Of a DNA stretch of 64,000 bases, positions 7,244-63,219 are shown one piece after another (within the stretch, counting starts at the first letter, position 1; the number at the start of each line of letters is the position of its first letter). Source of the DNA: an uncultured Chitinophagaceae bacterium (lineage in GTDB: Bacteria; Bacteroidota; Bacteroidia; Chitinophagales; Chitinophagaceae). The position numbers and the translations under genes were made by a program. Below the pieces are notes generated by a model. That model did not search any database and was not told where the DNA came from. It was given only the letters and a program-made list of their open reading frames with translations. Location: assembly GCA_903870685.1 (NCBI GenBank), contig CAIQDX010000013.1, forward strand, positions 1,350-65,349. The letters are read 5' to 3'.

Positions 7244-7306
7244 GAACGTTGAAGAGTGCGACGCAACAAAAGCTAAATAGAATTTCAAAAGTTGGTAACA
7301 AAAAAA
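7244..7306 (+). repeat. Intergenic repeat copy 1 (ACGTTGAAG-type 5' box)
   Basis: GAACGTTGAAGAGTGCGACGCAAC-27 nt-GTAACAAAAAAA; lies between the hemE stop and the hemB ATG. Confidence 0.9.
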
Positions 7307-7313
7307 TATTAAA

Positions 7314-8288
7314 ATGCATTTACAAAGAAGAAATAGAATATTGCGTGCAACACCTGCAATTAGAAGTATGGTTGCAGAAAGTTCTTTATCGCCAAACGAT
7401 TTTATTGCACCATTATTTATTGATGAAGGAAGTAATTTGGCATACGAAATTCCATCGATGCCAAATTATTTTCGTTACTCGATTGATCTTACTATTCAAG
7501 AAGTAAAACTCTTGTGGAGTTTAGGAATTAAATCTGTTTTATTATTTGTAAAAGCAAAAGACGAAACAAAAGATAACATCGGAAAAGAAGCATGGAACCC
7601 CGATGGTTTAATGCAACGTGCCATTAAAGCAATAAAAGATGCAGTGCCTGAAATGCTTGTTATGACTGATGTTGCGCTGGATCCTTATTCAATTTATGGT
7701 CATGATGGAATTGTAAAAGATGGCGAAATTGTAAATGATGAAACTGTTGATGCTTTGGTACAAATGAGTTTAAGTCATGCACAAGCCGGAGCCGATTTTG
7801 TTGCGCCAAGCGATATGATGGATGGACGAATTGGTGCTATTCGTGAAGCATTAGAACATGAAGGTTTTACTAAAACAGGCATCATGAGTTACAGTGCAAA
7901 ATATGCATCATGTTTTTATGGACCATTCCGCGATGCATTGGATAGTGCACCTGGATTTGGTGATAAGAAAACATATCAAATGGATTATTCAAATCGCAAA
8001 GAAGCGATAAGAGAAACACTGATGGATATTGCTGAAGGTGCAGATATTGTAATGATAAAACCTGCAATGGCTTATTTAGATATTATTCGCGAAATAAAAA
8101 ATACAGTTGATGTTCCGGTAAGTGCTTATCATGTTAGTGGTGAATATGCCATGATTAAAGCTGCTGCAAAAATGGGTTGGCTAAATGAAGAAAAAGCTAT
8201 TCTCGAAAGTTTGGGTTCTATCAAACGTGCCGGTGCTGATTTAATTGCAACTTATTTTGCGAAGGATGCAGTAAAATTAATTTCTTAA
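7314..8288 (+). CDS. hemB: Porphobilinogen synthase (delta-aminolevulinate dehydratase)
   Basis: 324 aa with active-site lysine contexts MSYSAKYAS and VMIKPA, plus ALDPYS..GHDG. Confidence 0.95.
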   Translation: MHLQRRNRILRATPAIRSMVAESSLSPNDFIAPLFIDEGSNLAYEIPSMPNYFRYSIDLTIQEVKLLWSLGIKSVLLFVKAKDETKDNIGKEAWNPDGLMQRAIKAIKDAVPEMLVMTDVALDPYSIYGHDGIVKDGEIVNDETVDALVQMSLSHAQAGADFVAPSDMMDGRIGAIREALEHEGFTKTGIMSYSAKYASCFYGPFRDALDSAPGFGDKKTYQMDYSNRKEAIRETLMDIAEGADIVMIKPAMAYLDIIREIKNTVDVPVSAYHVSGEYAMIKAAAKMGWLNEEKAILESLGSIKRAGADLIATYFAKDAVKLIS

Positions 8289-8304
8289 CCCTTAATAGTT
8301 TTTT

Positions 8305-8610
8305 ATGTATATCATCGAATCAACTTACAAAGTATCAGCAAAAGAAATAGATAAAAATTTAGATGCGCACATGGAATACATTGAAAAATATTCCAACACT
8401 GGTCATTTTTTAGCATCTGGTCGTAAAGTGCCACGCGATGGTGGAATTATTTTAGCAAAGGCCGCCACAAGAAAAAGAATTGAAGATATTGTTTCGAAAG
8501 ATCCTTTAAACATTGCAGGTTTAGCCGAATATCGTATCATCGATTTTAAAGCAACTAAAAATACCAAAGAGTATAAAACATTTATTGGTGAAGACGAATA
8601 TGTTGGTTAA
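8305..8610 (+). CDS. YciI-like family protein
   Basis: 101 aa with a typical YciI pattern (LDAHMEYI...GHFLASGR...GGIILAKA...DPL). Confidence 0.65.
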   Translation: MYIIESTYKVSAKEIDKNLDAHMEYIEKYSNTGHFLASGRKVPRDGGIILAKAATRKRIEDIVSKDPLNIAGLAEYRIIDFKATKNTKEYKTFIGEDEYVG

Positions 8611-8670
8611 TTTTTTTATTGACTAAGCTGCAAATCCTTGTTGGGCTTGAGTTGCGTCGCACTCTTGTAC
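8611..8670 (-). repeat. Intergenic repeat copy 2
   Basis: Plus strand reads TTTTTTTATTGAC...GTTGCGTCGCACTCTTGTAC, starting directly after the YciI-like stop codon. Confidence 0.9.
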
Positions 8671-8698
8671 GGTTTGTTATCAATGAGCAATAATTAAT

Positions 8699-10021
8699 TT
8701 ATCTTCTCATCCCGGGAAACTTACCACCCATGGGCATTTTATTCATCATGCCCATCATTTTTTTCATTTGTTCAAACTGTTTCATAAAAGCATTTACATC
8801 ATTCATATCTTTTCCGCAACCTTTTGCAATACGTAATTTTCTTTTTGCATCAATTAAATCAGGATTACTTCTTTCCTCGGGTGTCATGCTGTGAATGATA
8901 GCTTCAACACCTTTAAACGCGTCATCTTTTATATCAACATCTTTCATTGCTTTACCAACACCCGGAATCATTCCCATCAAATCTTTTAAGTTACCCATCT
9001 TTTTTATTTGTTGCAACTGTTCTAAAAAATCTTGAAAGTCAAATTGATTTTTTTTGATCTTCTTTTCTAATCTTTTTGCTTGCTCTTCATCAAATTGATC
9101 TTGTGCTTTTTCAACTAATGAAGCAATATCACCCATTCCTAAAATTCGTTGCGCCATACGATCGGGATAAAACACATCAAGTGTATCCATCTTCTCGCCG
9201 CTGCTCATGAATTTTATTGGCTTATCAACTGTGTATTTTATGGAGAGCGCAGCACCACCACGAGTATCACCATCCAACTTTGTAAGAACAACTCCTGTAA
9301 AATCTAATTTATCATTAAATGCTTTTGCAGTGTTCACGGCATCTTGTCCGGTCATCGCATCAACCACAAATAAAATTTCTGTAGGATTCACTGCCAGCTT
9401 TATGTTCGACACTTCGGTCATCATCACTTCATCAATCGCCAAACGGCCCGCAGTATCAATAATTACAACATTTTTATTTTTTGATTTTGCTTCTTTAATG
9501 GCATTTTGAACAATCTCAACAGCATTTTTATTTTCTCTTTCGGCATAAATATCAACACCAATTTGTTCGGCTAAAACAGTTAACTGATCTATCGCTGCCG
9601 GACGATAAATATCAGCAGCAACAACCAATGGTGATTTTCCTTTTTTTGTTTTTAAATAATTGGCAAGCTTACCTGTAAAAGTTGTTTTACCACTACCTTG
9701 TAATCCTGCAATTAATATTACTGCGGGGTTTCCGGTGATATTAAATTCTGATGCAGTGCCGCCCATTAAATCAGTTAATTCATCCTGAACAATTTTTACC
9801 ATTAATTGTCCGGGGCTGATTGCATTCAAAACTTTTTCGCCGGTAGCTTTTTCTTTTACTTTATCAGTAAACTCTTTGGCGATCTTAAAATTTACATCGG
9901 CATCAATCAATGCACGACGAATATCTTTTACAGTATTCGCAATATTGAGATCGTTAATGCGTGCTTCGCCTTTAAGGTTCTTAAACGCGGATTCTAATTT
10001 TTCGCTGAGTGAATTAAACAT
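8699..10021 (-). CDS. ffh: Signal recognition particle protein Ffh
   Basis: G-domain motifs GLQGSGKTT, DTAGR, TKLDGD, plus a Met-rich C-terminal M domain. Confidence 0.95.
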   Translation of the reverse strand: MFNSLSEKLESAFKNLKGEARINDLNIANTVKDIRRALIDADVNFKIAKEFTDKVKEKATGEKVLNAISPGQLMVKIVQDELTDLMGGTASEFNITGNPAVILIAGLQGSGKTTFTGKLANYLKTKKGKSPLVVAADIYRPAAIDQLTVLAEQIGVDIYAERENKNAVEIVQNAIKEAKSKNKNVVIIDTAGRLAIDEVMMTEVSNIKLAVNPTEILFVVDAMTGQDAVNTAKAFNDKLDFTGVVLTKLDGDTRGGAALSIKYTVDKPIKFMSSGEKMDTLDVFYPDRMAQRILGMGDIASLVEKAQDQFDEEQAKRLEKKIKKNQFDFQDFLEQLQQIKKMGNLKDLMGMIPGVGKAMKDVDIKDDAFKGVEAIIHSMTPEERSNPDLIDAKRKLRIAKGCGKDMNDVNAFMKQFEQMKKMMGMMNKMPMGGKFPGMRR

Positions 10022-10047
10022 GGTTCTCTATTTTCAATCTTTCACAA

Positions 10048-10078
10048 ATAAAAAAGTGAACTTAATGAGTTCACTTTA
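10048..10078 (-). terminator. Rho-independent terminator after rpoD
   Basis: AGTGAAC/GTTCACT 7-bp stem (10055-10075) followed on the minus strand by a T-run. Confidence 0.65.
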
Positions 10079-10111
10079 AAATGAGGTGCAAATATAATCG
10101 GAGATTTTGTT

Positions 10112-10984
10112 TTATCCGAGATAAACCTTCAAATGCTTGCAGCGACTGGTGCTACGAAGTTTATTAATTGCTTTATCTTTTATTTGACGAACTCGTTCAC
10201 GGGTCAAATTAAATCGAGCGCCAATATCTTCAAGACTTAAAGCATTATCAATTCCAATTCCAAAAAAATAACATATCACAGCTTTTTGTCTGTCGGTTAA
10301 CGATAACATACTACGTTCAATCTCTGTACGCAATGATTCGTGATATTCTAATTTAGAATCAGTTTTTTCAGCATTAGGATTAATCATCACATCCATTAAG
10401 GTACTATCCTCTCCATCGGATAAAGGAGTGTCCATACTGATATGGCGAGTGCCGACATTCATTGTTGCTCTAATTTCTTCCAAATCCATATCCAACAAAT
10501 TTGCTAATTCTTCTGCAGTTGGTTCTCTTTCAAACTCCTGTTCTAATTGCTGATAAGCTTTACTGATTCGATTGGATAATCCAACTTTATTCAATGGTAA
10601 TCGAACAATACGGCTTTGTTCAGCCAATGCTTGTAAAATACTCTGACGAATCCACCAAACTGCGTAAGAAATAAATTTAAAGCCACGTGTTTCATCAAAA
10701 CGAAGTGCAGCTTTAATTAAACCAAGGTTTCCTTCATTAATCAAATCGGGTAATGTTAATCCCTGATTTTGGTATTGTTTCGCAACAGATACCACGAATC
10801 TTAAATTTGATTTTACCAATCGATCCAACGCTCGCTGATCGCCATTTTTAATTAGTATTGCCAGGTTTACCTCTTCTTCGGCAGAAATAAGGTCTACTTT
10901 TCCAATCTCTTGCAAATACTTTTCTAAGCTTTGGCTTTCGCGATTGGTGATAGATTTTGAAATCTTGAGTTGACGCATACTCAT
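10112..10984 (-). CDS. rpoD: Primary-type RNA polymerase sigma-70 factor (short Bacteroidota RpoD architecture)
   Basis: Regions 2-4 are present ([23 protein letters not shown]); 290 aa. Confidence 0.9.
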
Positions 10985-13696: not shown

Positions 13697-14443
13697 ATGA
13701 AAAACAAAAATACAAGTCGCAGAAATTTTATTGCAAACACCGGTAAAGCCGGACTTGCAATTGGTTTAAGTGCCACAGTTTTACCGTCGCTTGCAAATCG
13801 GTTTAATGCTGCTTCATCTGCAACCGGTATTCCTTATTCGCAACAACCATTGTTATATGGTTATAAAGATTTGGAAGTTTCGATCGATGCATTAACAATG
13901 GAAATTCATTATTCAAAACATGCTGCCACTTACGCAAAAAATTTAGCTGATGCAGTTGTTGCTGAAAAAATTGATACAAAAGCAATATCGCTGGAAGACT
14001 TGATGGCAAAGGTTTCTAAGTATTCGCCAAAAGTTAGGAATAATGGTGGCGGACATTATAATCACGAATTGTTTTGGCAAAGTATGAGTCCGAAATCTTC
14101 TGCAAAACCTGATGGAAAATTATTATCAAGTATTGAAAAAGATTTTGGTTCGTTCGAAACTTTTAAAACACAATTTACCGATGCTGGTAAAAACAGATTT
14201 GGCAGTGGCTGGGCATGGCTGGTAATTAATAACGATAAAAAATTAATTATCGGTTCAACACCAAACCAGGATAATCCGTTGATGGATGTAAGTGATTTAA
14301 AAGGAACACCATTATTAGGATTGGATGTTTGGGAACATGCTTATTATTTGCGTTATCAAAATAAACGCCCTGATTATATTAATGCCTGGTGGAATGTTGT
14401 TAATTGGGAAATTGTTCAAAAAAGATTTGATGCAGCGAGTTAA
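13697..14443 (+). CDS. Fe/Mn superoxide dismutase with a twin-arginine signal peptide
   Basis: Tat motif SRRNFIANTG; SOD motifs HYSKHAATY and DVWEHAYYL. Confidence 0.9.
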   Translation: MKNKNTSRRNFIANTGKAGLAIGLSATVLPSLANRFNAASSATGIPYSQQPLLYGYKDLEVSIDALTMEIHYSKHAATYAKNLADAVVAEKIDTKAISLEDLMAKVSKYSPKVRNNGGGHYNHELFWQSMSPKSSAKPDGKLLSSIEKDFGSFETFKTQFTDAGKNRFGSGWAWLVINNDKKLIIGSTPNQDNPLMDVSDLKGTPLLGLDVWEHAYYLRYQNKRPDYINAWWNVVNWEIVQKRFDAAS

Positions 14444-14461
14444 AAACTTGCAATGAAAACA

Positions 14462-14529
14462 GTACGTTGAAGAGTGCGACGCAACAGGCGATGCCATGAA
14501 ATACAAAAGCTCGTAACAAAATAAAAAAA
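14462..14529 (+). repeat. Intergenic repeat copy 3
   Basis: GTACGTTGAAGAGTGCGACGCAACAGGCGATGCCATGAAATACAAAAGCTCGTAACAAAATAAAAAAA; lies between the SOD stop and its terminator. Confidence 0.9.
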
Positions 14530-17487: not shown

Positions 17488-17522
17488 ATCAACAATCATA
17501 AAAATGGTTGTTGATTTTTTTG
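17488..17522 (+). terminator. Rho-independent terminator after the M20 dipeptidase gene
   Basis: ATCAACAA/TTGTTGAT stem followed by TTTTTTT. Confidence 0.7.
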
Positions 17523-17572
17523 TTACCAACTACAACACTTTAATCATCACCGGTTGCGTCGCACACTTGTAC
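17515..17572 (-). repeat. Intergenic repeat copy 4
   Basis: TTTTTTTGTTACC...GGTTGCGTCGCACACTTGTAC; its T-run is shared with the terminator of the M20 peptidase gene. Confidence 0.9.
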
Positions 17573-17717
17573 TGCATAACATTGTTCATCTTTTTTAACG
17601 TCACTAACACTAAGATGCACTAAGAAAATTCTTTACATTTCTTTGTGCCTTTGAGCCTTCGTGGCAAAAAATTATTTGCGTAAATCCGTGTTCGCATCAT
17701 TTCATTATTTTTGAATC

Positions 17718-23397: not shown

Positions 23398-23727
23398 ATG
23401 AACAACAAATCAATTATTATTAAAGGAAAAATTGTTGATGAACATTCGCGTTGTTCGCATTATCATTCTCTGCTGGATATTATTGCCATTAGGATGAAAT
23501 GTTGCAACGAATATTTTTCTTGTATTTATTGTCATGATGAAGAAGCAGATCACAAAACAGAAGTTTGGCTTAAAAAGGAATTCGATACCAAAGCAATTTT
23601 ATGTGGTAATTGTTTTAACGAATTAACCATCACTCAATATTTGGATAGTAATTATCAATGTCCGTTTTGCGAAGCTGCATTTAATCCGCGTTGCAGTAAT
23701 CACAATCATTTTTATTTTGAAGTATAA
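23398..23727 (+). CDS. CHY zinc-finger protein
   Basis: Cys/His-rich: CSHYH, CCNEYFSCIYCHD, CGNC, CPFC. Confidence 0.7.
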   Translation: MNNKSIIIKGKIVDEHSRCSHYHSLLDIIAIRMKCCNEYFSCIYCHDEEADHKTEVWLKKEFDTKAILCGNCFNELTITQYLDSNYQCPFCEAAFNPRCSNHNHFYFEV

Positions 23728-23732
23728 TTTTA

Positions 23733-23790
23733 TTTTTTGTTGACGAGCTGCAATGCTATTCTCAGCTTTTGTTGCGTCGCACACTTCTAC
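23733..23790 (-). repeat. Intergenic repeat copy 5a (left member of a head-to-head pair)
   Basis: TTTTTTGTTGACGAGCTGCAATGCTATTCTCAGCTTTTGTTGCGTCGCACACTTCTAC. Confidence 0.9.
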
Positions 23791-23829
23791 AAAAGAAAAG
23801 CTATCAGCGATTAGCTAATGGCTTTTTCA

Positions 23830-23886
23830 GTACAAGAGTGCGACGCAACAGGCGATGCCATGAAATACAACAGCCGGTTTAATAAA
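23830..23886 (+). repeat. Intergenic repeat copy 5b (right member of the pair, degenerate 3' box)
   Basis: GTACAAGAGTGCGACGCAACAGGCGATGCCATGAAATACAACAGCCGGTTTAATAAA. Confidence 0.85.
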
Positions 23887-23990
23887 TATTTTTTTAAAAG
23901 AAATCAACTGCATAACAATTTGTAATTTTGATTGTTGCCAATTAGGTCTTACTTTTCGGGCAAAATCCGTCACCAAAAAATACTGTACCA

Positions 23991-24644
23991 ATGATCGTTA
24001 ATTTAAGTGAGCAGCACAGTTTAGTTAGCAATTGGATAGCTGAAATAAGAGACATAAATATTCAGTGTGATCGAATGCGTTTTCGTCGCAACTTAGAACG
24101 TGTTGGCGAAATTGCTGCTTATGAAATAAGTAAAGAATTAGCGTGGACAGAAGTGGAAACACAAACTCCGTTAGGAATTCATACCAGCAAAGTTTTAGAA
24201 CAACAACCGGTACTGGCAACTATTTTAAGAGCAGGATTACCATTGCATCAGGGCATGTTGAATTATTTTGATAAAGCAGATAATGCATTTATTTCTGCTT
24301 ATCGCAAGCATCATCATGATGGCACTTTCGAAATAAGTTTGGAATACATGAGTTGCCCATCGTTAAATAATAGAGTTGTTATTATCAGCGATCCAATGCT
24401 TGCCACAGGCTCTTCGATTGTAAAAACAATTCAATACATGAAAGCAGAAAATGCTCCTGCTAAATTTCATGTGGTGGTTGCCATAGCTTGTACGATTGGA
24501 ATTGAATATGTATTGCGTGAATGTGGTTCTGATACCACCATCTGGTGTGGTGATATTGATGATGAATTAACAGCCAAAGGATATATTGTTCCGGGTTTGG
24601 GTGATGCAGGCGACCTTGCATTTGGAACAAAAATGCAGGCTTAG
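23991..24644 (+). CDS. upp: Uracil phosphoribosyltransferase
   Basis: PRPP loop VVIISDPMLATGSS and C-terminal GYIVPGLGDAGD. Confidence 0.9.
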   Translation: MIVNLSEQHSLVSNWIAEIRDINIQCDRMRFRRNLERVGEIAAYEISKELAWTEVETQTPLGIHTSKVLEQQPVLATILRAGLPLHQGMLNYFDKADNAFISAYRKHHHDGTFEISLEYMSCPSLNNRVVIISDPMLATGSSIVKTIQYMKAENAPAKFHVVVAIACTIGIEYVLRECGSDTTIWCGDIDDELTAKGYIVPGLGDAGDLAFGTKMQA

Positions 24645-28889: not shown

Positions 28890-28954
28890 TTTTTTTATTT
28901 TTTTAGTCAGCACCTGCAACGCGATTGAACAGCGGTTGCGTCGCACACTTGTAC
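28890..28954 (-). repeat. Intergenic repeat copy 6a (left member of a head-to-head pair)
   Basis: T-rich end ...GCGGTTGCGTCGCACACTTGTAC. Confidence 0.85.
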
Positions 28955-28995
28955 CGAAGAAAAAAATGAACAATTTAAATGCTGATAATAGTTCA

Positions 28996-29058
28996 GAACG
29001 TTGAAGAGTGCGACGCAACAGGCGATGCCATAAAAAACAAAAGCTCGCTAACAAAAAA
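28996..29058 (+). repeat. Intergenic repeat copy 6b (right member of the pair)
   Basis: GAACGTTGAAGAGTGCGACGCAACAGGCGATGCCATAAAAAACAAAAGCTCGCTAACAAAAAA; its A-run abuts the stop codon of the minus-strand DUF4249 gene. Confidence 0.9.
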
Positions 29059-29844
29059 TTATGGTATCGCAACTTTTTTTCTTTGCGTTGTATTTGCACT
29101 AAAATATCCTAAACATCCGCCCGTGATATTGCTTACAGGATTTTCGGGTGTTGTAGAATTTTGTTGAAGACCTGATAATGAATTGTAATATCGATAAACA
29201 TTTTTATCAATACAACGCATTTCAACATTTACAGTATCTCCGGATATTATTGTGCTATCGGCAACAATTAAAGGCCTTGTACTAACACCGCCATCATTAA
29301 ATCTATCATCCCAAACAAAAAAGAACCCTGAAGAAGAAGTGTTATTTGGATACGTTATTGTTTCAATAAAACTATAATAATTGGCAATGCCTGTTGGATC
29401 TTTATATTGAGGTTGCACAACAGTCAGCATCTTATTGAAATATGGAATTTTTGTAAGCAATAAAGTATCAAGATTTACTTTTTGCGGCATGGTTGAACTT
29501 GCAGTATAATTAACGCCATTAATTGTTACAGATAAATTATAAGTGCGACCCGGAACTCCAAATAATATTTTATTGCTGTAAAAACCAGGAGCACTTTCTG
29601 TCAAAGAAAAATTATTATTTAAGTTGTCGGTAACTTTAACTGTAGCACCAGTAACAGTGGGGAAATTATTGCTGTTGCTGAACATTACAGATTGTGTAAT
29701 ATTTACCTGAGCAAAAGTTTGATCGGTAATAATACCTTCAATAACTATTTGTGGTGACGCATTATTTAAATCAACATTAATAGTTTTTGTACAAGACATT
29801 AATGCTATGAAGAAAAAAAATGTTATGGTAAAATATTTTTTCAT
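29059..29844 (-). CDS. DUF4249-like lipoprotein (usual partner of the upstream TonB-dependent receptor)
   Basis: Lipobox ALMSC; position directly after the TBDR gene. Start set to ATG 29844. Confidence 0.65.
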   Translation of the reverse strand: MKKYFTITFFFFIALMSCTKTINVDLNNASPQIVIEGIITDQTFAQVNITQSVMFSNSNNFPTVTGATVKVTDNLNNNFSLTESAPGFYSNKILFGVPGRTYNLSVTINGVNYTASSTMPQKVNLDTLLLTKIPYFNKMLTVVQPQYKDPTGIANYYSFIETITYPNNTSSSGFFFVWDDRFNDGGVSTRPLIVADSTIISGDTVNVEMRCIDKNVYRYYNSLSGLQQNSTTPENPVSNITGGCLGYFSANTTQRKKVAIP

Positions 29845-44052: not shown

Positions 44053-44109
44053 GTACAAGTGTGCGACGCAACGAAGATGCCATGAAATTCAAAAGCCGGT
44101 ATCAAAAAA
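44053..44109 (+). repeat. Intergenic repeat copy 7
   Basis: GTACAAGTGTGCGACGCAACGAAGATGCCATGAAATTCAAAAGCCGGTATCAAAAAA; abuts the stop codon at 44110-44112. Confidence 0.9.
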
Positions 44110-45333
44110 TTATTCCGAGCTTATTTTTAATCTTTCGACCGACACAGTTAAAAATTGTTTTGAAAAGATCTGCCACGAGATGATGATCCACAAAATAAAG
44201 CAGGGCATAGCTTTCAGCGCATATGGGCGAATAATATTTTCGCGTAACCAAGGCGTAAACAGATCGGAATAAGAGAAGCTGGTTAATATTAATGCATAGA
44301 TGAAAACTGCATTTACAATTTTAGTATGTTGTTGTAAAACATACCAGATACAAACTGCAGGAAATGCAATGATATAAGTTGGCGACTCGGCACTGGTTGT
44401 ATAAATAACGGTTGTAATTAAAACAGAAGCCAACAAATACAAACGAAAACGTGTATCGGAAAAATATTGATAACGCAGATATTGTAATCCGAATATGATC
44501 ATCGCCGGAATGGTGACGTAAACATTTTTGAAATGGTTAAGATTAAAAATTCTACGGATCATTCCCATCACACAAATATCCTGATAATCGTTTGTGTCAT
44601 TTGGATCAATGTTTTTTAATGCCTTAAAATGCAATGCTGCGTACCAATCTTTATACGATTGAATGATGAATGAAGGCGGTGCCAACAGCATGGGTAATAT
44701 AAAAAATGCAACGGCCCAAATGATGGTCCATTTAATAAAATTAATTTTATCTTTTGCGAAAAAGAAAAAAGCAAAACCTACAATGCCATAGATTTTAACG
44801 AAGGTGCCGAGCATGATAAAAAATAAAGCCCAAACATTTTTTCCTTCATGAATAAATACAAAACCAAAAATGATACAAGCAGCTATCAACGGATTACTTT
44901 GCAACCAGGATGCGGCTGTCATCATTTCGTGAGCCGATAAAATAATAATTGCATTTTGCCATTTTTCCTGAATTGGTAGTTTTCTAATCGCGAAATATAA
45001 AATACCGGTATTAAACATTCCCCAACAAATAATTCCTAACCAATCGGGCAAGAAAGTAAAAGGTGCTATCACCATACTAAAAACCGGACCGTATAAATTT
45101 ACATCAACATATTGCTGCGGATATTCGAGATATAGATTAACATGTTGCAGCGTATGAATATAAACATGCTTAAAGATGATGTAGTTATTTGTCTTCTCAT
45201 GCAAGAAATCGAGCAGCACTGCAATCAATGCCAAACCAAACCACAAAACAATCGCTAATGTCTTATCGTATAAAAATTCACCGGATAAAAACCAATTTTT
45301 TGTTTTGTTTTCTCTCATATTCTTACGCAACAA
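44110..45333 (-). CDS. GT-C type membrane glycosyltransferase (DUF2029/GT87-like)
   Basis: About 10-12 TM segments in 407 aa; follows a GT2 gene. Confidence 0.6.
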   Translation of the reverse strand: MLRKNMRENKTKNWFLSGEFLYDKTLAIVLWFGLALIAVLLDFLHEKTNNYIIFKHVYIHTLQHVNLYLEYPQQYVDVNLYGPVFSMVIAPFTFLPDWLGIICWGMFNTGILYFAIRKLPIQEKWQNAIIILSAHEMMTAASWLQSNPLIAACIIFGFVFIHEGKNVWALFFIMLGTFVKIYGIVGFAFFFFAKDKINFIKWTIIWAVAFFILPMLLAPPSFIIQSYKDWYAALHFKALKNIDPNDTNDYQDICVMGMIRRIFNLNHFKNVYVTIPAMIIFGLQYLRYQYFSDTRFRLYLLASVLITTVIYTTSAESPTYIIAFPAVCIWYVLQQHTKIVNAVFIYALILTSFSYSDLFTPWLRENIIRPYALKAMPCFILWIIISWQIFSKQFLTVSVERLKISSE

Positions 45334-47388: not shown

Positions 47389-47419
47389 GACTTTGAAAAA
47401 ATCAGAGTTTTTTTTTGTT
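47389..47419 (+). terminator. Weak terminator-like hairpin after the DHS-like gene
   Basis: ACTTTGA/TCAGAGT stem (one G-U pair) flanked by an A-run and a 9-T run. Confidence 0.45.
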
Positions 47420-47467
47420 ACAAGCGATAGAATAAAATTTAGCTGTTGTTGCGTCGCACACTTGTAC
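47408..47467 (-). repeat. Intergenic repeat copy 8
   Basis: TTTTTTTGTTACAAGCGATAG...GTTGTTGCGTCGCACACTTGTAC; its T-run is shared with the hairpin after the DHS-like gene. Confidence 0.9.
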
Positions 47468-47484
47468 GGTAGAAATTTTATTCA

Positions 47485-55108: not shown

Positions 55109-57196
55109 ATGAACAGATTCAACAAACCTATTTGGAAAACTGTTCCGATGTTGCGTTTCTTGTTGCCATTAATTGCCGGAATTTTATTGCAATTCTATTT
55201 TAATATTGAAATGAAAATGTTTCTTTTTGTTTTTATTATTTCAATAACTATTTTTTTTGCTATTAATTTATTAAACGCTTCAGTAAAATTTAAACTTATT
55301 TGGCTAACTGGTATTTGCATTAGTTTAATTTTTATATCTCTGGGCAATGGAATAACTTATTTAAAAAATGCCGAACACAATGATAACAGCTTTCTAAAAA
55401 ATTATACAAACAATGCAGCCATAATTGTAACTATTCAAGAATCCTTAGTTGAAAAAGCAAAATCGTTTAAGGCTTTAGCAAAGATTGAAACTGTTATAAA
55501 CAATCAAATCAAAACAGTTAATGGAAATATTTTGTTGTACTTCAAAAAAAATGATTCAAAACCATTGCTTCATTATGGATCAAGAATTCTCATTCGTAAA
55601 TCTTTGCAACCGATTACTAATTCGGGCAATCCGGGTTCATTTAATTACAAACAATTTTGTGCTTTTCAAGAAATTTATTATCAGGTATTTTTGAATGATG
55701 GTGATTATAAAATACTTTCATCCGAGAATAAATTTTTCTTCGACGACTGGTTGCAAAAAACCCGAACAAGTGTGCTCGCAGTGTTGCGGCAGAACATTTC
55801 AAACCCCGATGCAGCAAGCATTGCAGAAGCTTTATTAATTGGTTATCGCGATGATTTAGATAAAGATCTGGTACAAGCTTACAGCAATACCGGCGTAGTT
55901 CACATCATTGCGATAAGCGGTTTGCATATTGCCATGATTTATGGATTGCTTATTTTTTTATTCAGACCATTTAATCGATTCAAATTTATAAAATGGATTA
56001 AACCTTTTGTTGTTTTAATTATTATTTGGGGGTTTACTTTTGTAGCTGGCGCAGTTCCTTCTATTTTGCGAAGTGCAGTAATGTTTTCATTTATCGTTAT
56101 TGGCGAAAGCTTCAGTAAGAAAATTAATATCTATAATAATCTTGCGGCATCGGCATTTACAATTTTATTATTTAATCCGTTTAGTTTGTGGGATGTTGGA
56201 TTTCAACTCAGTTATGCTGCAGTGTTGAGCATTGTCATTTTTTCAAAACACATCAACAACTGGATCTATTTTAAAAATAAAATCCTGAAATATATTTGGG
56301 AGCTGAGTTCTGTAACTTTATCGGCACAAATTCTTACGCTTCCATTAATTCTATTTTATTTTCACCAATTTCCTGGATTATTTTTATTTACTAATCTGAT
56401 TGCAGTTCCTTTATCGGGATTGATTTTGTTCATCGAACTTTTATTATTAATTGTTTCGCCATTTACAATCGTTGCAAATTTTGTTGGCTCTGCAACAGGC
56501 ATAACAATTAATTGGATGAATGATTTTATACTGCGCATCAACAGCATTCCATTTTCAACATGGCAATCACTTCAAATAAATATTGTGCAAACAATTTTTT
56601 TATACTTTATGATTATTGCTTTGGCGATTTGGTTATTACGAAAACAAACAACTTCTTTGATAGTTGCACTTTATTGTTCGCTGATATTTTTTGCGATTAG
56701 AAGTTTTGATTTTCTCAAACGAGATCAACAACAAAAATTAATTGTATACAATGTACCGCAACATAAGGCCATGGACTTAATTGATGGAAGAAATTACCAA
56801 TTTATTGGCGACAGCATTTTATTGCAGAATGGATTTCTGCAAAACTTTCATTTAAACCCTTCGCGAATTTTACATCGCACTACTGCAGCAAATCAACTTC
56901 TAACAATTAATTATTCCTCGCATTTAATTGCTTCATCAAACAAGAAAATTGTTTTGATTGATGAGCCGATTAATAATTTGTTTGTTGATAAAAAACTAAA
57001 AGTGGATGTTATTATCATTTCTCAAAACCCCAAACTTAATATCAGCCAATTGATACAGGCATTTGATTGTAACGAATTTATTTTTGATGCAAGCAATCCG
57101 TTGTGGAAAATCAACCAATGGAAAAAAGATTGCGAAAACTTACATTTGCGGCATCTTTCCATACCAGAGCAAGGTGCTTTTGTAATGGAGCTTTAA
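55109..57196 (+). CDS. comEC: ComEC/Rec2 family competence membrane protein
   Basis: Multi-TM protein with the competence-domain motif GVVHIIAISGLHI; 695 aa. Confidence 0.85.
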   Translation: MNRFNKPIWKTVPMLRFLLPLIAGILLQFYFNIEMKMFLFVFIISITIFFAINLLNASVKFKLIWLTGICISLIFISLGNGITYLKNAEHNDNSFLKNYTNNAAIIVTIQESLVEKAKSFKALAKIETVINNQIKTVNGNILLYFKKNDSKPLLHYGSRILIRKSLQPITNSGNPGSFNYKQFCAFQEIYYQVFLNDGDYKILSSENKFFFDDWLQKTRTSVLAVLRQNISNPDAASIAEALLIGYRDDLDKDLVQAYSNTGVVHIIAISGLHIAMIYGLLIFLFRPFNRFKFIKWIKPFVVLIIIWGFTFVAGAVPSILRSAVMFSFIVIGESFSKKINIYNNLAASAFTILLFNPFSLWDVGFQLSYAAVLSIVIFSKHINNWIYFKNKILKYIWELSSVTLSAQILTLPLILFYFHQFPGLFLFTNLIAVPLSGLILFIELLLLIVSPFTIVANFVGSATGITINWMNDFILRINSIPFSTWQSLQINIVQTIFLYFMIIALAIWLLRKQTTSLIVALYCSLIFFAIRSFDFLKRDQQQKLIVYNVPQHKAMDLIDGRNYQFIGDSILLQNGFLQNFHLNPSRILHRTTAANQLLTINYSSHLIASSNKKIVLIDEPINNLFVDKKLKVDVIIISQNPKLNISQLIQAFDCNEFIFDASNPLWKINQWKKDCENLHLRHLSIPEQGAFVMEL

Positions 57197-58746: not shown

Positions 58747-58772
58747 TTATTTTGCTCAATTTAATCTCAACA

Positions 58773-58831
58773 GTACAAGAGTGCGACGCAACGGAAGCTA
58801 AATTAATATTCAAAGGATAAAAACAAAAAAA
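58773..58831 (+). repeat. Intergenic repeat copy 9 (degenerate 3' box)
   Basis: GTACAAGAGTGCGACGCAACGGAAGCTAAATTAATATTCAAAGGATAAAAACAAAAAAA; lies after the purH stop. Confidence 0.85.
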
Positions 58832-58869: not shown

Positions 58870-58892
58870 AGCCCCTCTTTCGGAGGGGTTTG
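58870..58892 (+). other. GC-rich hairpin between purH and the EamA gene
   Basis: CCCCTC-TTTCG-GAGGGG followed only by TTT; a possible weak terminator or leader structure. Confidence 0.4.
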
Positions 58893-58908
58893 GGGAGGCT
58901 GAAAATAA

Positions 58909-59829
58909 ATGGCACTTACAACAAATCAAAAAGCTTACATCGCATTAACTGCAACCAGTATTATCTGGGGCACAACATGGGTTGCAAGTAAAGTTGCCGT
59001 TACAAATGCGCCGCCACTGGAGGTTTCAGCGATTCGTCAATTTATTGCAGGATTTATTTATATTGTTTTTTTTAAGTTGAAAGGCGAACCATGGCCTTCG
59101 TTAAAACAATTGAAACCATTATTAATCATGAGTTTTTTTCTGCTCATCATTGCCAATGGTTTTGCAACATGGAGCATTAAATTTATTTCGAGCGGACTGG
59201 CAGCATTGATCGCTGCTTTATATCCTTTGTGTGTTGTTATTATTGAAATGATTTTTTATAAAACAAAAAATACCATTGCAACTTTTATTGGATTAACATT
59301 AGGTCTCGCCGGAATTTGTGTTGTGTTTTACGACAATGCATTTCATCATAATTCTGCAAATTATTTATTTGGTGTTGTGCTGTCGTTAATTGCAATGTTA
59401 TCATGGGGTATTGGTACGATTTTCGTTGCAAGAAAGAAATTAAATATCAATCCTTATTACGGAATGGGTTGGCAAATGATGCTGGCATCACCATTTATTT
59501 TTATCATGTCACTTGGCGCCGGAAATAATATTTCGCTTGCACAAATTCCAACACAAACATGGTTGGCATTAGGTTATTTGGTACTCATCGGTTCGTGCAT
59601 TGCATTTGTTTGTTTTATTTATACTATGAAACATTTACCAGCAGCCATCGCATCGTTGTATGCCTACATAAACCCAATAGTAGCAATGATTACGGGCTAT
59701 TTATTATTAAGCGAAAAATTAACCATCAATATTTTAATTGGAACTGCCATCACCATTTTTGGTGTATATCTCGTTAACCACAGCTTGAAAGAAAAACCAA
59801 CAAGCGAGTTAATTGAAAATGAGATTTAA
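58909..59829 (+). CDS. EamA/DMT family transporter
   Basis: Ten TM segments in two EamA repeats. Confidence 0.85.
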   Translation: MALTTNQKAYIALTATSIIWGTTWVASKVAVTNAPPLEVSAIRQFIAGFIYIVFFKLKGEPWPSLKQLKPLLIMSFFLLIIANGFATWSIKFISSGLAALIAALYPLCVVIIEMIFYKTKNTIATFIGLTLGLAGICVVFYDNAFHHNSANYLFGVVLSLIAMLSWGIGTIFVARKKLNINPYYGMGWQMMLASPFIFIMSLGAGNNISLAQIPTQTWLALGYLVLIGSCIAFVCFIYTMKHLPAAIASLYAYINPIVAMITGYLLLSEKLTINILIGTAITIFGVYLVNHSLKEKPTSELIENEI

Positions 59830-59889
59830 TTTATGTTACCGGCTGATGTACTAATGGCATCGTCTGTTGCGTCGCACTCTTCAACGTTC
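59830..59889 (-). repeat. Intergenic repeat copy 10
   Basis: TTTATGTTACCGGCTGATG...GGCATCGTCTGTTGCGTCGCACTCTTCAACGTTC, starting directly after the EamA stop codon. Confidence 0.9.
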
Positions 59890-59934: not shown

Positions 59935-60369
59935 TTAATTTATTGCCTCTTTAATTTGATTAAATGAAATATTATAAAAACGGCTTCGATTTTTCTTAAG
60001 CACTCTATCGTAATAATCAATTTTTAAATTTACAGTTCCATCTTTATTTTCTTTAAAAGAAATATTATCTCTGGCTGCATAAATATCTTTCAAGACAAAA
60101 AGATGATGCTCAGGATATTCATCAAACTCAGAAGTGGTGATATAAATATTATCAGATACCTCACAATCAGGCATTCTAGCACTTCCACTAAGGTTAGATA
60201 CAATAAACAACTGAATTAAAAAAGTATGCGTTTCAAATTTTTTGGTTTCAACAATATTATTCAATACATAACTCAGTGTAGAATCTTTGCTGATCTTAAA
60301 ACTAAATTTTTCTTGCGCATGGATATTTGTGACGAAGAGTAAGAATAAAATTAATTGAGCTTTCCGCAT
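59935..60369 (-). CDS. Secreted hypothetical protein
   Basis: Signal peptide ...NIHAQ; 144 aa. Confidence 0.5.
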   Translation of the reverse strand: MRKAQLILFLLFVTNIHAQEKFSFKISKDSTLSYVLNNIVETKKFETHTFLIQLFIVSNLSGSARMPDCEVSDNIYITTSEFDEYPEHHLFVLKDIYAARDNISFKENKDGTVNLKIDYYDRVLKKNRSRFYNISFNQIKEAIN

Positions 60370-60376
60370 AAATAAT

Positions 60377-61684
60377 TTATTGCTTGAAATTACTAAAATT
60401 CTTTTCTAAGAATTCTTCATACATTTTTCTCCATACGATCCATTCAGTTTGCTCTGTTAAAAAATGGTTATGAAACAGAGTGATCAATTCTCCATTTACA
60501 CTTTTTACAACATCAAAATAGTGTTGCAATTCTTCAGCAGTTTGTTCGGCAGAATATTTTTGTTCGAAGATGGAATTAGCATCCATAAAACAAAACGGAT
60601 GCAATAATAAATTGGCTGTTTCATTTTTCTCCAGATCAAACCAATAAAACGGCAAAGTATAAGAAGCTCTGAAACCGTTGATGCCACCATATCCCATCGA
60701 ATACTCATCAGTAATTCCTGCTTCAATTAATTTTCGAAATGTTTGCGGAATAGTAAATCGTAAATAATGTTGCCGACTTTTTGTTATTGAATGTTGTGCG
60801 ATGTTTTGCAAAACCGAAATCTCTTTCTTCAACTCCGGACTCTCGACTCCCGACCACCGACTTTCTTCTCCGCTCTGCCAGCTTGGATGAATTCCAATTT
60901 CATTTTTTGCAGCAGTTTGTTTAATTAAATCCTGCATTGCTTTCTTGCGTGGCGAAATATTTTTGTCAACGCCTTTTCTTTTTTCGGCCAATAAAAAAAA
61001 GTACGACAGATTTAATTTATGTTCTTTATGCAAATCATTTAACCAATCATAAATATCAAACGGATCTTTTTTCCAGCCGCTGTAAACATTGCCGCGTTCA
61101 ACAAATTTTTCAAAATTGCCTACAAACAAATCACGATAAAAACCATACAGATTTAACAACAAAGGTTGATGTAGGTAAGCAAATGCAATATCAATATCGT
61201 ACGATGGAATGTATTTGAAACTTGTAACCTGAAATTTGTAACCTGATACTTTCTCCAATTCTTTCAACCACAAGTTGACCAATGGTTGTTGTAAAAAATT
61301 TTCTTTGTACGCCAAACTGTTGCTGTGCGAATATCTTCCGTACTCATCTTTTTCATGCGGTAAATATTCTTCGTAGCGGGTTAATAAATAAAATGCCGCC
61401 GAAAAAATATCAAACGGAATATCACCATTGGTTTTAAAAAATACTTTTAATCCGTTCCAGTTAAAACAATTTATTTGCTGTTGTTTTATTTCTGTTTCAA
61501 ATAATAGGCCATGAGGTTTTATCTGAAATTCTTCATGGTCAATGTGATTATATGAGTAATTAATTTTTGCTCCATTGTGATCTAAAAAATTTTCTTTCGA
61601 ATCGGTTAGAACAACTTTTTCACCCAATAATGTTTTGGAGATGTATTCAAGTCGAGATGTGATATGTTCTGAATAAATAATCAA
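60377..61684 (-). CDS. Polysaccharide deacetylase-family-like protein
   Basis: The N-terminus (M)IIYSEHITSRLEYI and the FDIFSAAFYLLTRYEEYLPHEKDEYGRY pattern resemble, from memory, a Bacteroidota family annotated this way. Start moved to TTG 61684 because the ORF-track N-terminus (61685..61732) is read through a repeat copy. Confidence 0.55.
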   Translation of the reverse strand: MIIYSEHITSRLEYISKTLLGEKVVLTDSKENFLDHNGAKINYSYNHIDHEEFQIKPHGLLFETEIKQQQINCFNWNGLKVFFKTNGDIPFDIFSAAFYLLTRYEEYLPHEKDEYGRYSHSNSLAYKENFLQQPLVNLWLKELEKVSGYKFQVTSFKYIPSYDIDIAFAYLHQPLLLNLYGFYRDLFVGNFEKFVERGNVYSGWKKDPFDIYDWLNDLHKEHKLNLSYFFLLAEKRKGVDKNISPRKKAMQDLIKQTAAKNEIGIHPSWQSGEESRWSGVESPELKKEISVLQNIAQHSITKSRQHYLRFTIPQTFRKLIEAGITDEYSMGYGGINGFRASYTLPFYWFDLEKNETANLLLHPFCFMDANSIFEQKYSAEQTAEELQHYFDVVKSVNGELITLFHNHFLTEQTEWIVWRKMYEEFLEKNFSNFKQ

Positions 61685-61713
61685 ATTTAGAAAAGTTGAA
61701 GAATGAACAAAAA

Positions 61714-61771
61714 GTACAAGAGTGCGACGCAACCACTGCCCAATTTTTATTCAACAGCTTGTAACAAAAAA
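61714..61771 (+). repeat. Intergenic repeat copy 11
   Basis: GTACAAGAGTGCGACGCAACCACTGCCCAATTTTTATTCAACAGCTTGTAACAAAAAA; abuts the lutB-like stop at 61772-61774. Confidence 0.9.
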
Positions 61772-63151
61772 TTAATTGAGCTTATTTTTTTCGATCCACA
61801 TTTCATTAAATGTTTTATTGCTGAAATCAAGATCACTTCTGTGTGTTGTCCATGCGCCGGCCACTTTATTAACCACCCAATTTTTTAATTTGCCATTACT
61901 CATGTTGTACATCTTTCTGTTAAGACTTGCTGTCTTCCAAATTTTCCACGCGATCCTTTCGCCTAAAGCGCTATCGCCTTCAACAACAGATTCGTGGCGA
62001 TTCTCTAATAATAATTCGTGCAGATTAATTCTAACAGGACAAACCTGCGTGCAATTGCCGCAAAGCGACGATGCAAAACTTAAATGTTTATATTCTTTCA
62101 TACCACTTAAATGCGGTGTGATAACGCTTCCTATTGGTCCGCTATAAGTTGTATCGTAAGCATGTCCGCCAATATTTTTATACACCGGACAAGCATTTAA
62201 ACATGCTCCGCAACGGATGCAATACAATGCTTCGCGTGTGAGTGGATTCTTTAATAAATTGGTGCGGCCATTGTCTAAAAGAATAACATACATTTCTTCG
62301 GGGCCATCCGTTTCGTTTGCTTGTCGCGGACCGGTAACAATGGTATTATACACAGTAACTTTTTGTCCGGTACCAAATGTTGAAAGCAATGGCCAAAACA
62401 AACCAAGATCATTAATTGATGGCAGCATTTTTTCAATACCAACAATAACAATATGTGTTTTAGGAAACGCACAACTTAATCTTGCATTGCCTTCGTTTTC
62501 TGTTACGGCAATGCCGCCAATATCGGCGATAATAAAATTAGCGCCGGTAACACCCACTTCTGCTTCAACATATTTTTCGCGCAATTTTATTCTTGCAACT
62601 TGAGTTAATTCTTCTGGCGATAAACCTCCGGGCACACCTAATTTATTTGCAAAAAGTTTTGCAACATCTTCTTTGCTTTTGTGCATGGCCGGTGTAACAA
62701 TATGATAAGGTGCTTCACCATCTAACTGTTGAATATATTCTCCAAGATCTGTTTCAACACTTTCAATATTATTTTTTTCTAAGAATTTATTTAAATGAAT
62801 TTCTTCAGTAACCATGCTCTTGCTCTTCACCAATGTTTTGCAATTTTTTTCTTTGCATATTTTTCCAATTTCATCTAGAGCTTGTTGTGCATTCTCGGCC
62901 CACAATACTTTTGCGCCACGCGAAGTAATTTCTTTTTCAAAATTCTCTAAATATTGATCTAAGTGTTCAATGGCACGCCACTTGGTATCCTTGGCACGTT
63001 CACGAGCAGTAAGTACATCTGTAAATTGTTCCTTGCCTTTTGGAACAACAGCATTGTATTTACCAATATTGAAATTAATTTTCCGGCGATGATCTAAATC
63101 GGCCGCTTTAATGGTACTCTTTGCAATAAATGAAGCTGCGTTGTTACTCAT
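61772..63151 (-). CDS. lutB: LutB-like iron-sulfur protein (LUD domain plus 2x[4Fe-4S])
   Basis: CIRCGACLNACPVY and CGNCTQVCPV clusters; 459 aa. Confidence 0.8.
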   Translation of the reverse strand: MSNNAASFIAKSTIKAADLDHRRKINFNIGKYNAVVPKGKEQFTDVLTARERAKDTKWRAIEHLDQYLENFEKEITSRGAKVLWAENAQQALDEIGKICKEKNCKTLVKSKSMVTEEIHLNKFLEKNNIESVETDLGEYIQQLDGEAPYHIVTPAMHKSKEDVAKLFANKLGVPGGLSPEELTQVARIKLREKYVEAEVGVTGANFIIADIGGIAVTENEGNARLSCAFPKTHIVIVGIEKMLPSINDLGLFWPLLSTFGTGQKVTVYNTIVTGPRQANETDGPEEMYVILLDNGRTNLLKNPLTREALYCIRCGACLNACPVYKNIGGHAYDTTYSGPIGSVITPHLSGMKEYKHLSFASSLCGNCTQVCPVRINLHELLLENRHESVVEGDSALGERIAWKIWKTASLNRKMYNMSNGKLKNWVVNKVAGAWTTHRSDLDFSNKTFNEMWIEKNKLN

Positions 63152-63219
63152 AATTTTTATTTTGTTACCAGCTTTTATTTTTCAAGTCATCGGTTGTTGC
63201 GTCGCACACTTCAACGTTC
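63152..63219 (-). repeat. Intergenic repeat copy 12
   Basis: The minus strand reads GAACGTTGAAGTGTGCGACGCAACAACCGATGAC...GCTGGTAACAAAATAAAAATT, followed directly by the lutB-like ATG. Confidence 0.9.

Follow-up and report, generated by a model that had tools for sequence, protein, structure and literature searches.

An apparently uncatalogued intergenic repeat of Chitinophagaceae with an exclusion zone of about 2 kb for direct pairs

What kind of element distributes a single invariant 12-mer through the intergenic DNA of a bacterium? This question is raised by a 64-kb stretch of DNA from an uncultured Chitinophagaceae bacterium (hereafter the window), in which the 12-nt core GTGCGACGCAAC occurs exactly 14 times, seven times on each strand, where dinucleotide-preserving shuffles predict 0.13 occurrences. 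The density is about one core per 4.6 kb. A preliminary description of the window had reported 14 copies sharing an identical 12-mer, every one of them intergenic, and both points were borne out: the cores are exact at the places it gave, and all 14 copies are located between open reading frames (ORFs). The longer 16-mer AAG-N-GTGCGACGCAAC is likewise exact in each copy. Allowing up to three mismatches adds only one match, a chance one, so the window is free of decayed copies. The repeats are real and non-random, and they belong to an intergenic repeat family, roughly 82 bp in unit length, that is apparently uncatalogued.

Alignment of the 14 copies yields an invariant G-T-n-n-A-A-G-n-GTGCGACGCAAC, then a variable middle, then an A-run. 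Because conservation spans about -31 to +50 relative to the core start in 165 core-anchored copies from many genomes, the unit is about 82 nt long. The repeat originally given as about 60 bp therefore exists but is longer than was supposed, because upstream there is an additional, loosely conserved module of the type TTGCTGAATAG / AATGCTGAATAG; a breakpoint between close relatives coincides exactly with the upstream edge of this unit. Next comes the 5' box (GTACAAG, GTTGAAG or GATGAAG plus any base; in the window GTACAAG, GTTGAAG and, once, GTAGAAG), and then the 12-nt core, which is based on the 9-bp palindrome TGCG-A-CGCA. The asymmetric box is conserved as strongly as the core palindrome. 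Together, box and core take the 20-mer form GTACAAGAGTGCGACGCAAC, which has a counterpart 20-mer of the GAGTGACACAAC type. After the core there is an exchangeable inner module of about 20 nt, with two or three recurrent classes, followed by a GCYGG-GTAAC/GTAC box and an A-run that tends to sit flush with a gene end. This 3' box (GCYGG plus GTAAC, GTAC, GCTC or similar) is the (A)GC-N2-3-GTAAC end reported earlier, although no more than about half of the window copies have it in regular form. The 5' box, the A-run and the spacer "lineages" are present as they had been described.

The element extends far beyond this one organism. Among species-representative genomes, at least 119 loci match AAGNGTGCGACGCAAC, nearly all from Chitinophagaceae or Chitinophagales, and at least 120 metagenome loci match the element as well. 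The genera among the matches listed include Segetibacter, Terrimonas, Ferruginibacter, Flavihumibacter, Lacibacter, Sediminibacterium, Parasediminibacterium, Flavisolibacter, Flavitalea, Puia and others, and the GC content of element-bearing genomes ranges from 31% to 57%. The spacer lineages of the window (e.g., AGGCGATGCCATGAAA and AGCTNAATAG) recur in different genera. The idea of a lineage-limited, copy-and-diverge spread is not upheld, as the box and core are conserved in many Chitinophagaceae genera; the element is not a one-genome MITE (miniature inverted-repeat transposable element) and is common to the family as a whole. No match was found in Rfam (at the gathering threshold or E<=5), in the literature and repeat catalogues, or in the TnpA(Y1) catalogue of repetitive extragenic palindromic (REP) sequences by Quentin et al., in agreement with the earlier impression that the family had not been recognised before.

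The principal new finding concerns the relative orientation of neighbouring copies, which was counted within the individual genome and metagenome loci. In 92 of 113 cases, one neighbour is opposite in orientation to the next (p about 9e-12). With both sets combined, 80 inverted pairs versus 3 direct pairs lie less than 2 kb apart centre to centre, as compared with 12 versus 7 at 2-2.5 kb and 66 versus 66 at 2.5 kb or more. In the genome loci, gaps of 0.3-2 kb separate 3 direct and 42 inverted pairs (20 -+ and 22 +-), gaps of 2-2.5 kb separate 8 and 11, and gaps above 2.5 kb separate 69 and 68. Independent metagenome loci hold 1 direct and 28 inverted pairs below 2 kb, and 16 and 17 above 2.5 kb. 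After correction for exposure, the density of direct pairs below 2 kb is 0-0.016 per kb in both sets, at least 10-fold under a baseline of about 0.11, whereas that of inverted pairs is at or slightly over baseline (0.16-0.17 per kb at 1-2 kb). These densities mean that what is seen is chiefly a shortage of neighbours on the same strand, which ends sharply near 2 kb. Of the three short-range direct pairs in the genome set, two join different core subtypes. This exclusion zone is a new finding; to our knowledge, no exclusion of direct pairs over kilobases is on record for REPs, and no neighbour-orientation rule on the kilobase scale has been described.

Several simpler origins of this pattern were considered and rejected. 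Because both inverted configurations are equally common, polarity-specific bracketing of units is excluded. Duplicative inversion is excluded as the source of alternation because, at locus L072, the order and strand of trpB and trpA are intact around three alternating copies. Decayed head-to-head dimers fail as the source of long-range alternation, as the majority of inverted pairs have a separation of 1-2 kb, occupied by genes. An assembly artefact is unlikely to have hidden the direct pairs: copies are exactly identical over no more than about 20-30 nt, the sample includes isolate genomes and chromosome-level assemblies, and the window obeys the same rule.

At the shortest range the bias becomes a preference for one dimer geometry. 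Among the 51 pairs whose cores lie less than 400 nt apart, 49 are head-to-head, two are tail-to-tail and none is head-to-tail. About 20 of these dimers combine one GAGTGACACAA[C/G] unit with one GTGCGACGCAA[C/G] unit, and no dimer pairs GAGTGACACAAC with GAGTGACACAAC. Dimers fold as long imperfect hairpins, whereas single units do not. The two halves are separated by 52 to 337 nt, and such close dimers account for only about 15-25% of copies. Small hairpin repeats of other kinds often lie between the two heads, and the dimer centre is an apparent hot spot for nested repeats; the families CCGCAGAG...CTCTGCGG and CGTCATTGCGAGG...CCTCGCAATGACG were seen there (L124:1140-1270, L127:16410-16480, L128, L281/L288/L299 and L236).

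Comparison of the window with relatives at 96%, 92%, 87%, 84% and 70% protein identity (the last being L127) made it possible to follow individual copies. They are given here by window position; L-numbers denote the compared loci.

7225..7310, + strand: copy 1, core 7256-7267, 5' box ACGTTGAAGA, exact core, nhmmer 51.0 bits; flanked by a stop (7225) and by the start of hemB (7314); orthologous copy in L021
8609..8694, - strand: copy 2, core 8651-8662, exact core, nhmmer match; A-run adjoins the YCII gene stop at 8610, with the ffh stop on the 5' side
14449..14527, + strand: copy 3, core 14474-14485, class-A inner module (AGGCGATGCCATGAAA); downstream of sodA
17511..17594, - strand: copy 4, core 17553-17564; A-run fuses with the terminator T-tract of an M20 peptidase gene
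23728..23814, - strand: copy 5, core 23771-23782, 5' box GTAGAAGT, left half of a head-to-head dimer; A-run adjoins the zf-CHY stop at 23727; orthologous partner in L127 has a GAGTGACACAAC core, and L124 synteny ends at the outer edge of the copy
23825..23894, + strand: copy 6, core 23838-23849, right half of this dimer, upstream of the upp promoter; orthologous copies in L124 and L127
28891..28962, - strand: copy 7, core 28935-28946, left half of a second head-to-head dimer; A-run 14 nt from the stop of a DnaJ/KTSC gene
28975..29062, + strand: copy 8, core 29008-29019, right half of the second dimer; A-run adjoins the DUF4249 stop at 29059; orthologue intact in L126, with a ...CAAG core in L127, and with the core decayed or interrupted in L124/L125
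44028..44114, + strand: copy 9, core 44061-44072; A-run adjoins the GT87 gene stop at 44110
47408..47484, - strand: copy 10, core 47448-47459; between convergent genes
58750..58816, + strand: copy 11, core 58781-58792; between purH and EamA; same spacer empty in L121 and L122
59824..59903, - strand: copy 12, core 59866-59877; A-run adjoins the EamA stop at 59829; present in L121, absent from L122, with an indel breakpoint exactly at the 5' edge of the copy
61690..61776, + strand: copy 13, core 61722-61733; A-run adjoins the stop of a LUD-domain gene at 61772; orthologues in L121 and L122
63152..63238, - strand: copy 14, core 63196-63207; A-run adjoins the start of a LUD-domain gene at 63151; the L121 orthologue is identical in flanks, box, core and 3' box and completely different in the inner module of about 20 nt

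The same spacer can thus be filled or empty among relatives at 87-96% identity, as between purH and EamA and downstream of EamA. A clean site holds a head-to-head dimer of about 290 nt in L124 versus 13 nt in the window, with at most an ambiguous TAA/ATAA flank. Both a break in L124-window synteny and a one-gene indel between L121 and the window end exactly at an element edge. At orthologous sites, the box and core can stay unchanged while the inner module is swapped wholesale between intact flanks, and at one site the core subtype itself differs (canonical in the window and L124, GAGTGACACAAC in L127). Because spacer classes are common to several genera and are exchanged at orthologous sites, gene conversion or replacement is indicated. 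Decayed cores do occur in other genomes (L124/L125). The element also enters newly gained (pro)phage DNA, where it occupies gaps in structural modules, among genes for terminase gpA, lambda-type portal, capsid and tail sheath, and related phages differ in carrying it. Filled and empty sites, edge breakpoints, module swaps and phage copies together point to ongoing insertion, loss and copy-to-copy conversion.

Some neighbouring features of these sites deserve mention. In the window and in L127 the dimer upstream of upp has zf-CHY beside it, and in L124 a UPF0093/hem cluster; this rearrangement relative to GCA_001875625.1 (L124:15380-15650 versus window 23715-24000 and window 1418) has its breakpoint at the outer A-run edge of the dimer. 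Downstream of EamA, a segment swap between the window and L121 starts exactly at the 5' edge of the element with core 59866-59877 (- strand): the window has a 144-aa ORF without a Pfam match (59935-60369, - strand), and L121 instead has a 126-nt segment (8093-8218) with CCACTAAG...CTTAGTGG inverted repeats at its ends. Another family of small repeats, the hairpin CCCC(T)C-TTT/TTCG-G(A)GGGG followed by TTGGGG, lies at window 58875-58905, between the + strand element with its core at 58781 and the EamA start. This family also occurs in L022, L042, L088, L136, L207 and L252, where it is found inside or beside elements or replaces an element in the same spacer. Among phage sequences, modules of about 44% GC on the IMG/VR contigs L252, L287, L260 and L263 carry two or three full elements, and those of L287 alternate in orientation at about 3-kb spacing.

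The core itself is variable in an orderly way. Of the 257 copies that a profile hidden Markov model detected in the genome loci, 76 have a core other than the canonical one. Counts by core are 176 for GTGCGACGCAAC, 35 for GTGCGACGCAAG (...CAAG) and 21 for GAGTGACACAAC, and a fourth type, [A/T]TGCGACGCAAC, is represented by 10 copies with a different 5' box, GATGAACGNA. These subtypes coexist inside genomes and recur across genera; non-canonical cores are discrete subtypes, not random decay. At core positions 4 and 8, which mirror one another in TGCG-A-CGCA, the combinations C:G, T:A and T:G occur 230, 23 and 0 times. This pattern may reflect a tiny stem, half-sites for a binding dimer, or double CpG deamination in a founder copy. 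Two independent orthologous copies in L127 (10816 and 16386) both have the GTGCGACGCAAG core where the window has ...CAAC, suggesting a lineage-wide concerted change or replacement of the subtype.

In about six credible copies, the central GAC of the core is replaced or expanded by a GC-rich palindrome; the remaining hits of the regular-expression scan for interrupted cores were mostly noise. These palindromes are perfect, 16-52 nt long, and sit at or near GAC in about six independent copies (L252:~14230-14300 versus L287:7603-7691; L015, L066, L268, L088 and L124). One interruption, GTGCGA|CCTGCCTGCCGGCAGGCAGG|CGCAAG, postdates the split of two related phages. Either hairpins are inserted into the core in a targeted fashion, or these are family members with longer stems.

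Is the element part of a gene or of a gene's control region? Over many genomes, 159 of 167 copies are intergenic, so the intergenic bias proposed for the window holds. The proposed link to transcript ends does not. Nine of the 14 window copies do abut a stop codon or terminator, as had been counted, but the association is gone in 165 copies: the downstream gene is co-oriented in 72 cases and anti-oriented in 79, the upstream gene in 74 and 66, and single genes are enclosed in both inverted layouts (21 and 14). A promoter, leader or terminator was rejected on the basis of this random orientation. No Bacteroidetes -33/-7 motif is present in the element, and the upp promoter (TTTG...TAATTTTG) is outside it, with the upp copy located upstream of that promoter. 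A short peptide gene, an idea prompted by an upstream ATG and a downstream TAG/TAA, was discarded because stops are near in all three frames and there is no consistent start, in line with the earlier statement that no conserved ORF accompanies the copies.

Copies are surrounded and separated by ordinary housekeeping genes, and the window genes encode no transposase, as had been stated, and no recombinase. Mobile gene cassettes bracketed by elements were rejected, since it is hemB, upp, trpA/B, pgk and the like that lie between elements, and EamA stays put with or without flanking elements. That the element acts at the DNA level, as a mobile or converting sequence, is well supported.

How, then, does the element compare with known repeats? 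Its closest known counterparts are the REPs, the bacterial interspersed mosaic elements (BIMEs) and the REP doublets forming hairpins (REPINs) of E. coli and Pseudomonas, which are GTAG-tagged and associated with REP-associated tyrosine transposases (RAYTs). All are high-copy, intergenic and neutral to gene orientation, and the element, at 14 copies per 64 kb with 159/167 intergenic and a 49/2/0 distribution of dimers, matches REPs in copy number, location and dimer form. The likeness extends to head-to-head dimers in the absence of head-to-tail ones, long persistence within a lineage, and other repeats nested beside or inside. Two sequence types are joined as heterodimers, like the Y and Z REPs that alternate in E. 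coli BIMEs. The published picture of REP families is one of mostly head-to-head dimers, hardly any head-to-tail ones and frequent heterodimers (PMC3733652). The REP-like behaviour suspected in the preliminary description was thus confirmed by the intergenic location, the filled and empty sites and the colonisation of phage modules; the defining features of REPs and MITEs were not found. In place of the 5-13 bp stem of REPs there is only 3-bp pairing (folding z -0.31 versus -0.39 for the control). There is no GT[AG]G tag: GTAG is present in one of 14 window copies, and a CGTC lies within the core with no stem after it. Single units lack terminal inverted repeats (TIRs), no clean target site duplications were seen around them, and only dimers form inverted repeats. 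Furthermore, the element is about 82 nt long with extra modules and an A-run, its core is conserved across a whole family and not a species group, and the RAYT genes that are present are flanked by another repeat. The repeat works like REP/BIME/REPIN systems but fails their defining structural features.

The CGTC-tagged REPs offer a second comparison, as the antisense core of the element reads GTTG-CGTC-GCAC. CGTC REPs occur in Bacteroidetes, mainly as head-to-head dimers (Di Nocera et al. 2013, PMC3733652); they have no transposase association, and RAYT genes in CGTC-positive species are not flanked by them (PMC3733652). Their definition requires a stem of 8-9 bp with a loop of 4-5 nt, and a CCA-like tail that immediately follows the tag (PMC3733652); the element has none of these. 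The enterobacterial repetitive intergenic consensus (ERIC), or intergenic repeat unit (IRU), of Enterobacteriaceae is similarly an intergenic sequence of about 100 nt that crosses genera, has no transposase of its own and lies in transcribed intergenic regions. However, ERIC is a long imperfect palindrome with no short invariant core, and the element is the opposite.

We favour the reading, with a probability of about one half, that this is an apparently undescribed Chitinophagaceae repeat family in which the box and core serve as the site of a strand-specific enzyme and close direct copies are purged. The orientation rule is strand-aware, blind to gene direction and ends at about 2 kb, and therefore suggests that a physical window confines some process on DNA. 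At the invariant box and core, DNA would be recognised or cut by a conserved, strand-specific processing enzyme, most likely an HUH/Y1-type single-strand transposase or a comparable recombinase acting on single-stranded DNA (ssDNA), which would mobilise and homogenise the copies. Same-strand copies less than about 2 kb apart could be exposed together as ssDNA between Okazaki fragments, whereupon the intervening DNA would be excised, or lost by slippage. Because this DNA is housekeeping, direct arrangements would be purged, leaving only inverted neighbours at short range. A weaker, enzyme-free version would involve replication slippage between the identical segments of about 20 nt.

The ssDNA-enzyme mechanism has moderate support, and the scale of the exclusion zone agrees with published limits for ssDNA. 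The ssDNA between Okazaki fragments measures about 1.5-2 kb (PMC5027513), and attC x attC excision falls for cassettes of at least 1.5 kb, a length effect seen earlier for IS608 and in both cases attributed to the simultaneous single-strandedness of the sites (PMC5371416). In the IS200/IS605 TnpA and integron IntI-attC systems, sites are used on one strand, a same-strand pair is joined with loss of the DNA between, and efficiency drops beyond about 1.5-2 kb, the scale of the zone described here. Unlike the element, those systems recognise folded hairpins (LE/RE and attC); neither such a structure nor linkage to a TnpA or IntI gene was seen at the element loci. Integron attC sites as such do not fit: orientation is mixed and alternates at short range, the flanking genes are housekeeping, and by direct reading ACGCAAC and GTTGCGT depart from the attC core-site consensus (RYYYAAC / GTTRRRY).

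Several observations weigh against the favoured reading. The unit lacks a hairpin of the kind that Y1 enzymes normally recognise, and the possible 3-bp mini-stem is weak. Over 90% of the direct pairs are missing, whereas a strict lagging-strand mechanism would account for the loss of only about half of them; this means that both orientations carry enough danger or that another mechanism is at work. A founder effect or double CpG deamination, and not a constraint of pairing or of a dimer site, could lie behind the C:G to T:A change in the core. Insertion of a single unit with clean target duplications was not seen in the compared sites. Finally, no cognate enzyme was identified by the scan of 2.2 Mb, which was for Y1 motifs only, with other RAYT/HUH families not searched.

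That scan did find one Y1 transposase, in L141 (PF01797, 27.2 bits, cutoff 23), whose protein carries NHIH..WQ..YIHSNP, the signature of Bacteroidetes TnpA(Y1) subclass 2.6 / RAYT group 5. It belongs to a RayT-type family of about 171 aa (L141:2444-3016, - strand; L304-L309, gene at 6001-6519 or 3001-3519) with 710 relatives at 57-100% identity, many from Chitinophagaceae and some named RayT by JGI. The search for a RAYT elsewhere, proposed at the outset, was thus successful with regard to the family, and it adds two further points to those just listed. First, in all seven loci (L141 and L304-L309) RayT is bracketed by a different, hairpin-forming REP, TTGTTGGTG-AAGAA-CACCAACAA-GGC(G), and in none of the seven is the element adjacent to the gene. 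Second, although the hairpin REP of L141 and L307 is preceded by an AAG-N-GTG box and shares a TGC..GCAA foot and a GGCG tail with the element, the prediction of this box failed in the fresh loci L308 and L309, and a shared ancestry of this REP and the element's box and core is a weak lead.

The hairpin REP reaches 16 copies in 12 kb at L307 and is absent from the window and the other approximately 300 loci (2.2 Mb). RayT and its REP look like a REPtron whose REP has not spread. The RAYT family as found was rejected as the mobilising enzyme of the element, as the REPtron arrangement, in which the same repeats are inverted around a single-copy gene, is not seen. It is a tentative and rather doubtful proposal that a putative Chitinophagaceae-wide enzyme other than RayT has its site in box and core (AAG-N-GTGCGACGCAAC or a subtype of it), with the 2-kb zone as the ssDNA footprint of the replication fork.

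Among the alternatives, the one that survives best, albeit as an unlikely one, is a binding site for a host protein. TGCG-A-CGCA and the A-tract would bind a conserved dimeric factor (nucleoid-associated, topological or insulator), function would keep the core invariant, and copies would have spread by recombination in the absence of a dedicated transposase. E. coli BIMEs, for comparison, bind IHF and gyrase. A core that is invariant while the rest of the unit drifts, a palindrome in which the mirror-symmetric subtype change hits both half-sites, family-wide conservation, neutrality to gene orientation and an A-run beside the 3' box are all in accord with such a site. A symmetric site in double-stranded DNA nevertheless gives no cause for head-to-tail exclusion under a sharp 2-kb limit, the colonisation of phage structural modules and the insertion of whole dimers go unexplained, and the asymmetric 5' box is conserved as well as the palindrome is.

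It is less probable still that the element is a decayed MITE, in which the head-to-head dimer was the mobile unit with TIRs of about 80 bp, single copies are broken halves, and a DDE transposase resides elsewhere. The predominance of head-to-head dimers (49/51), their long hairpins, and the whole dimer present in L124 at a site where the window has none, with a possible TAA/ATAA flank, would suit this model. However, close dimers hold only the minority of copies noted above, and partner loss cannot give the observed spacing; the distance between halves is variable, often with other repeats inserted. The outer tips of the dimer (A-runs and 3' box) are its least conserved parts, whereas real TIR tips are usually the best conserved. 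A DDE system would endanger inverted pairs that flank genes, and the opposite is observed. No related insertion sequence was seen in 2.2 Mb, where the scan was for Y1-type motifs and DDE-type transposases were not searched.

We give slightly less credence again to an element acting in RNA, be it a 3'-untranslated-region stabiliser or terminator, or complementary copies that enclose an ORF in a duplex for processing or protection by RNase III. The nine window copies that adjoin stop codons or terminators had suggested the former. The latter would draw on the fact that neighbours less than 2 kb apart are nearly always complementary and, if co-transcribed, would form duplexes of at least 20 bp, and that elements occur inside operons (e.g., trpB-trpA in L072). 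Against this, orientation to genes is unbiased in 165 copies (72 vs 79), both inverted layouts surround single genes (21 vs 14), the upp copy is upstream of its promoter, and many copies have no partner within 4 kb or more. Moreover, complementarity by itself would be no reason for a single 16-mer to stay fixed throughout a bacterial family. Folding gave no support. With RNAalifold, both strands of 14 and of 165 copies yield only a trivial 3-bp UGC/GCA pairing, and mutual information with average product correction finds no long-range covariation in 165 copies, so the earlier call to look for a fold on both strands was answered in the negative. Folding of single copies is no stronger than that of controls from their flanks (z = -0.31, +0.10 and -0.39; control -0.39), and the complementary termini noted for the copies at 47408 and 61714 are not general. 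A structured RNA is ruled out by these folds, mutual information, z-scores and Rfam.

The least credible alternative, a DNA uptake sequence whose perfect copies are maintained by biased uptake during transformation and recombination, can draw on an invariant 12-16-mer about once per 4.6 kb in the window, family-wide conservation with "dialect"-like variants, inverted pairs near gene ends and a ComEC gene, but it is hard to reconcile with a core that is confined to intergenic DNA (159/167) and embedded in an 82-nt homologous unit with exchangeable modules, with a neighbour-orientation rule that uptake bias does not predict, and with ComEC being widespread and not diagnostic. The uptake sequences of Neisseria (DUS) and Pasteurellaceae (USS) are comparable in having a short invariant motif every few kb, family-level conservation, dialects and frequent inverted pairs near gene ends. 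They differ in being free-standing 9-12-mers that also occur inside genes, with no extended homologous unit and no neighbour-orientation rule. We know of no natural competence in Chitinophagaceae. The gene in question, at window 55109-57196, encodes a ComEC/Rec2-type competence protein (DUF4131 + PF03772).

The finding has implications for how such families are detected. REP-like population behaviour needs neither the hairpin nor the tag used in automated REP detection, and such families may therefore be systematically missed. The same-orientation exclusion over about 2 kb is a simple, quantitative property that could reveal the mechanism involved, whether an ssDNA enzyme or slippage at the fork, and it can be checked in other repeats. 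If box and core do serve a separate enzyme, as tentatively proposed, the element would represent a new partnership between a repeat and an enzyme that does not involve a hairpin, and the Okazaki-scale exposure of ssDNA would be readable from the orientation of repeats in genomes.

For the Chitinophagaceae, the invariant 16-20-mer is usable as a taxonomic marker and as an anchor for typing by polymerase chain reaction, and the elements mark breakpoints of recombination and rearrangement. This is a large family that is environmentally dominant in soil, freshwater and activated sludge. If the density seen in the window holds genome-wide, the element would make up a substantial share of its intergenic DNA.

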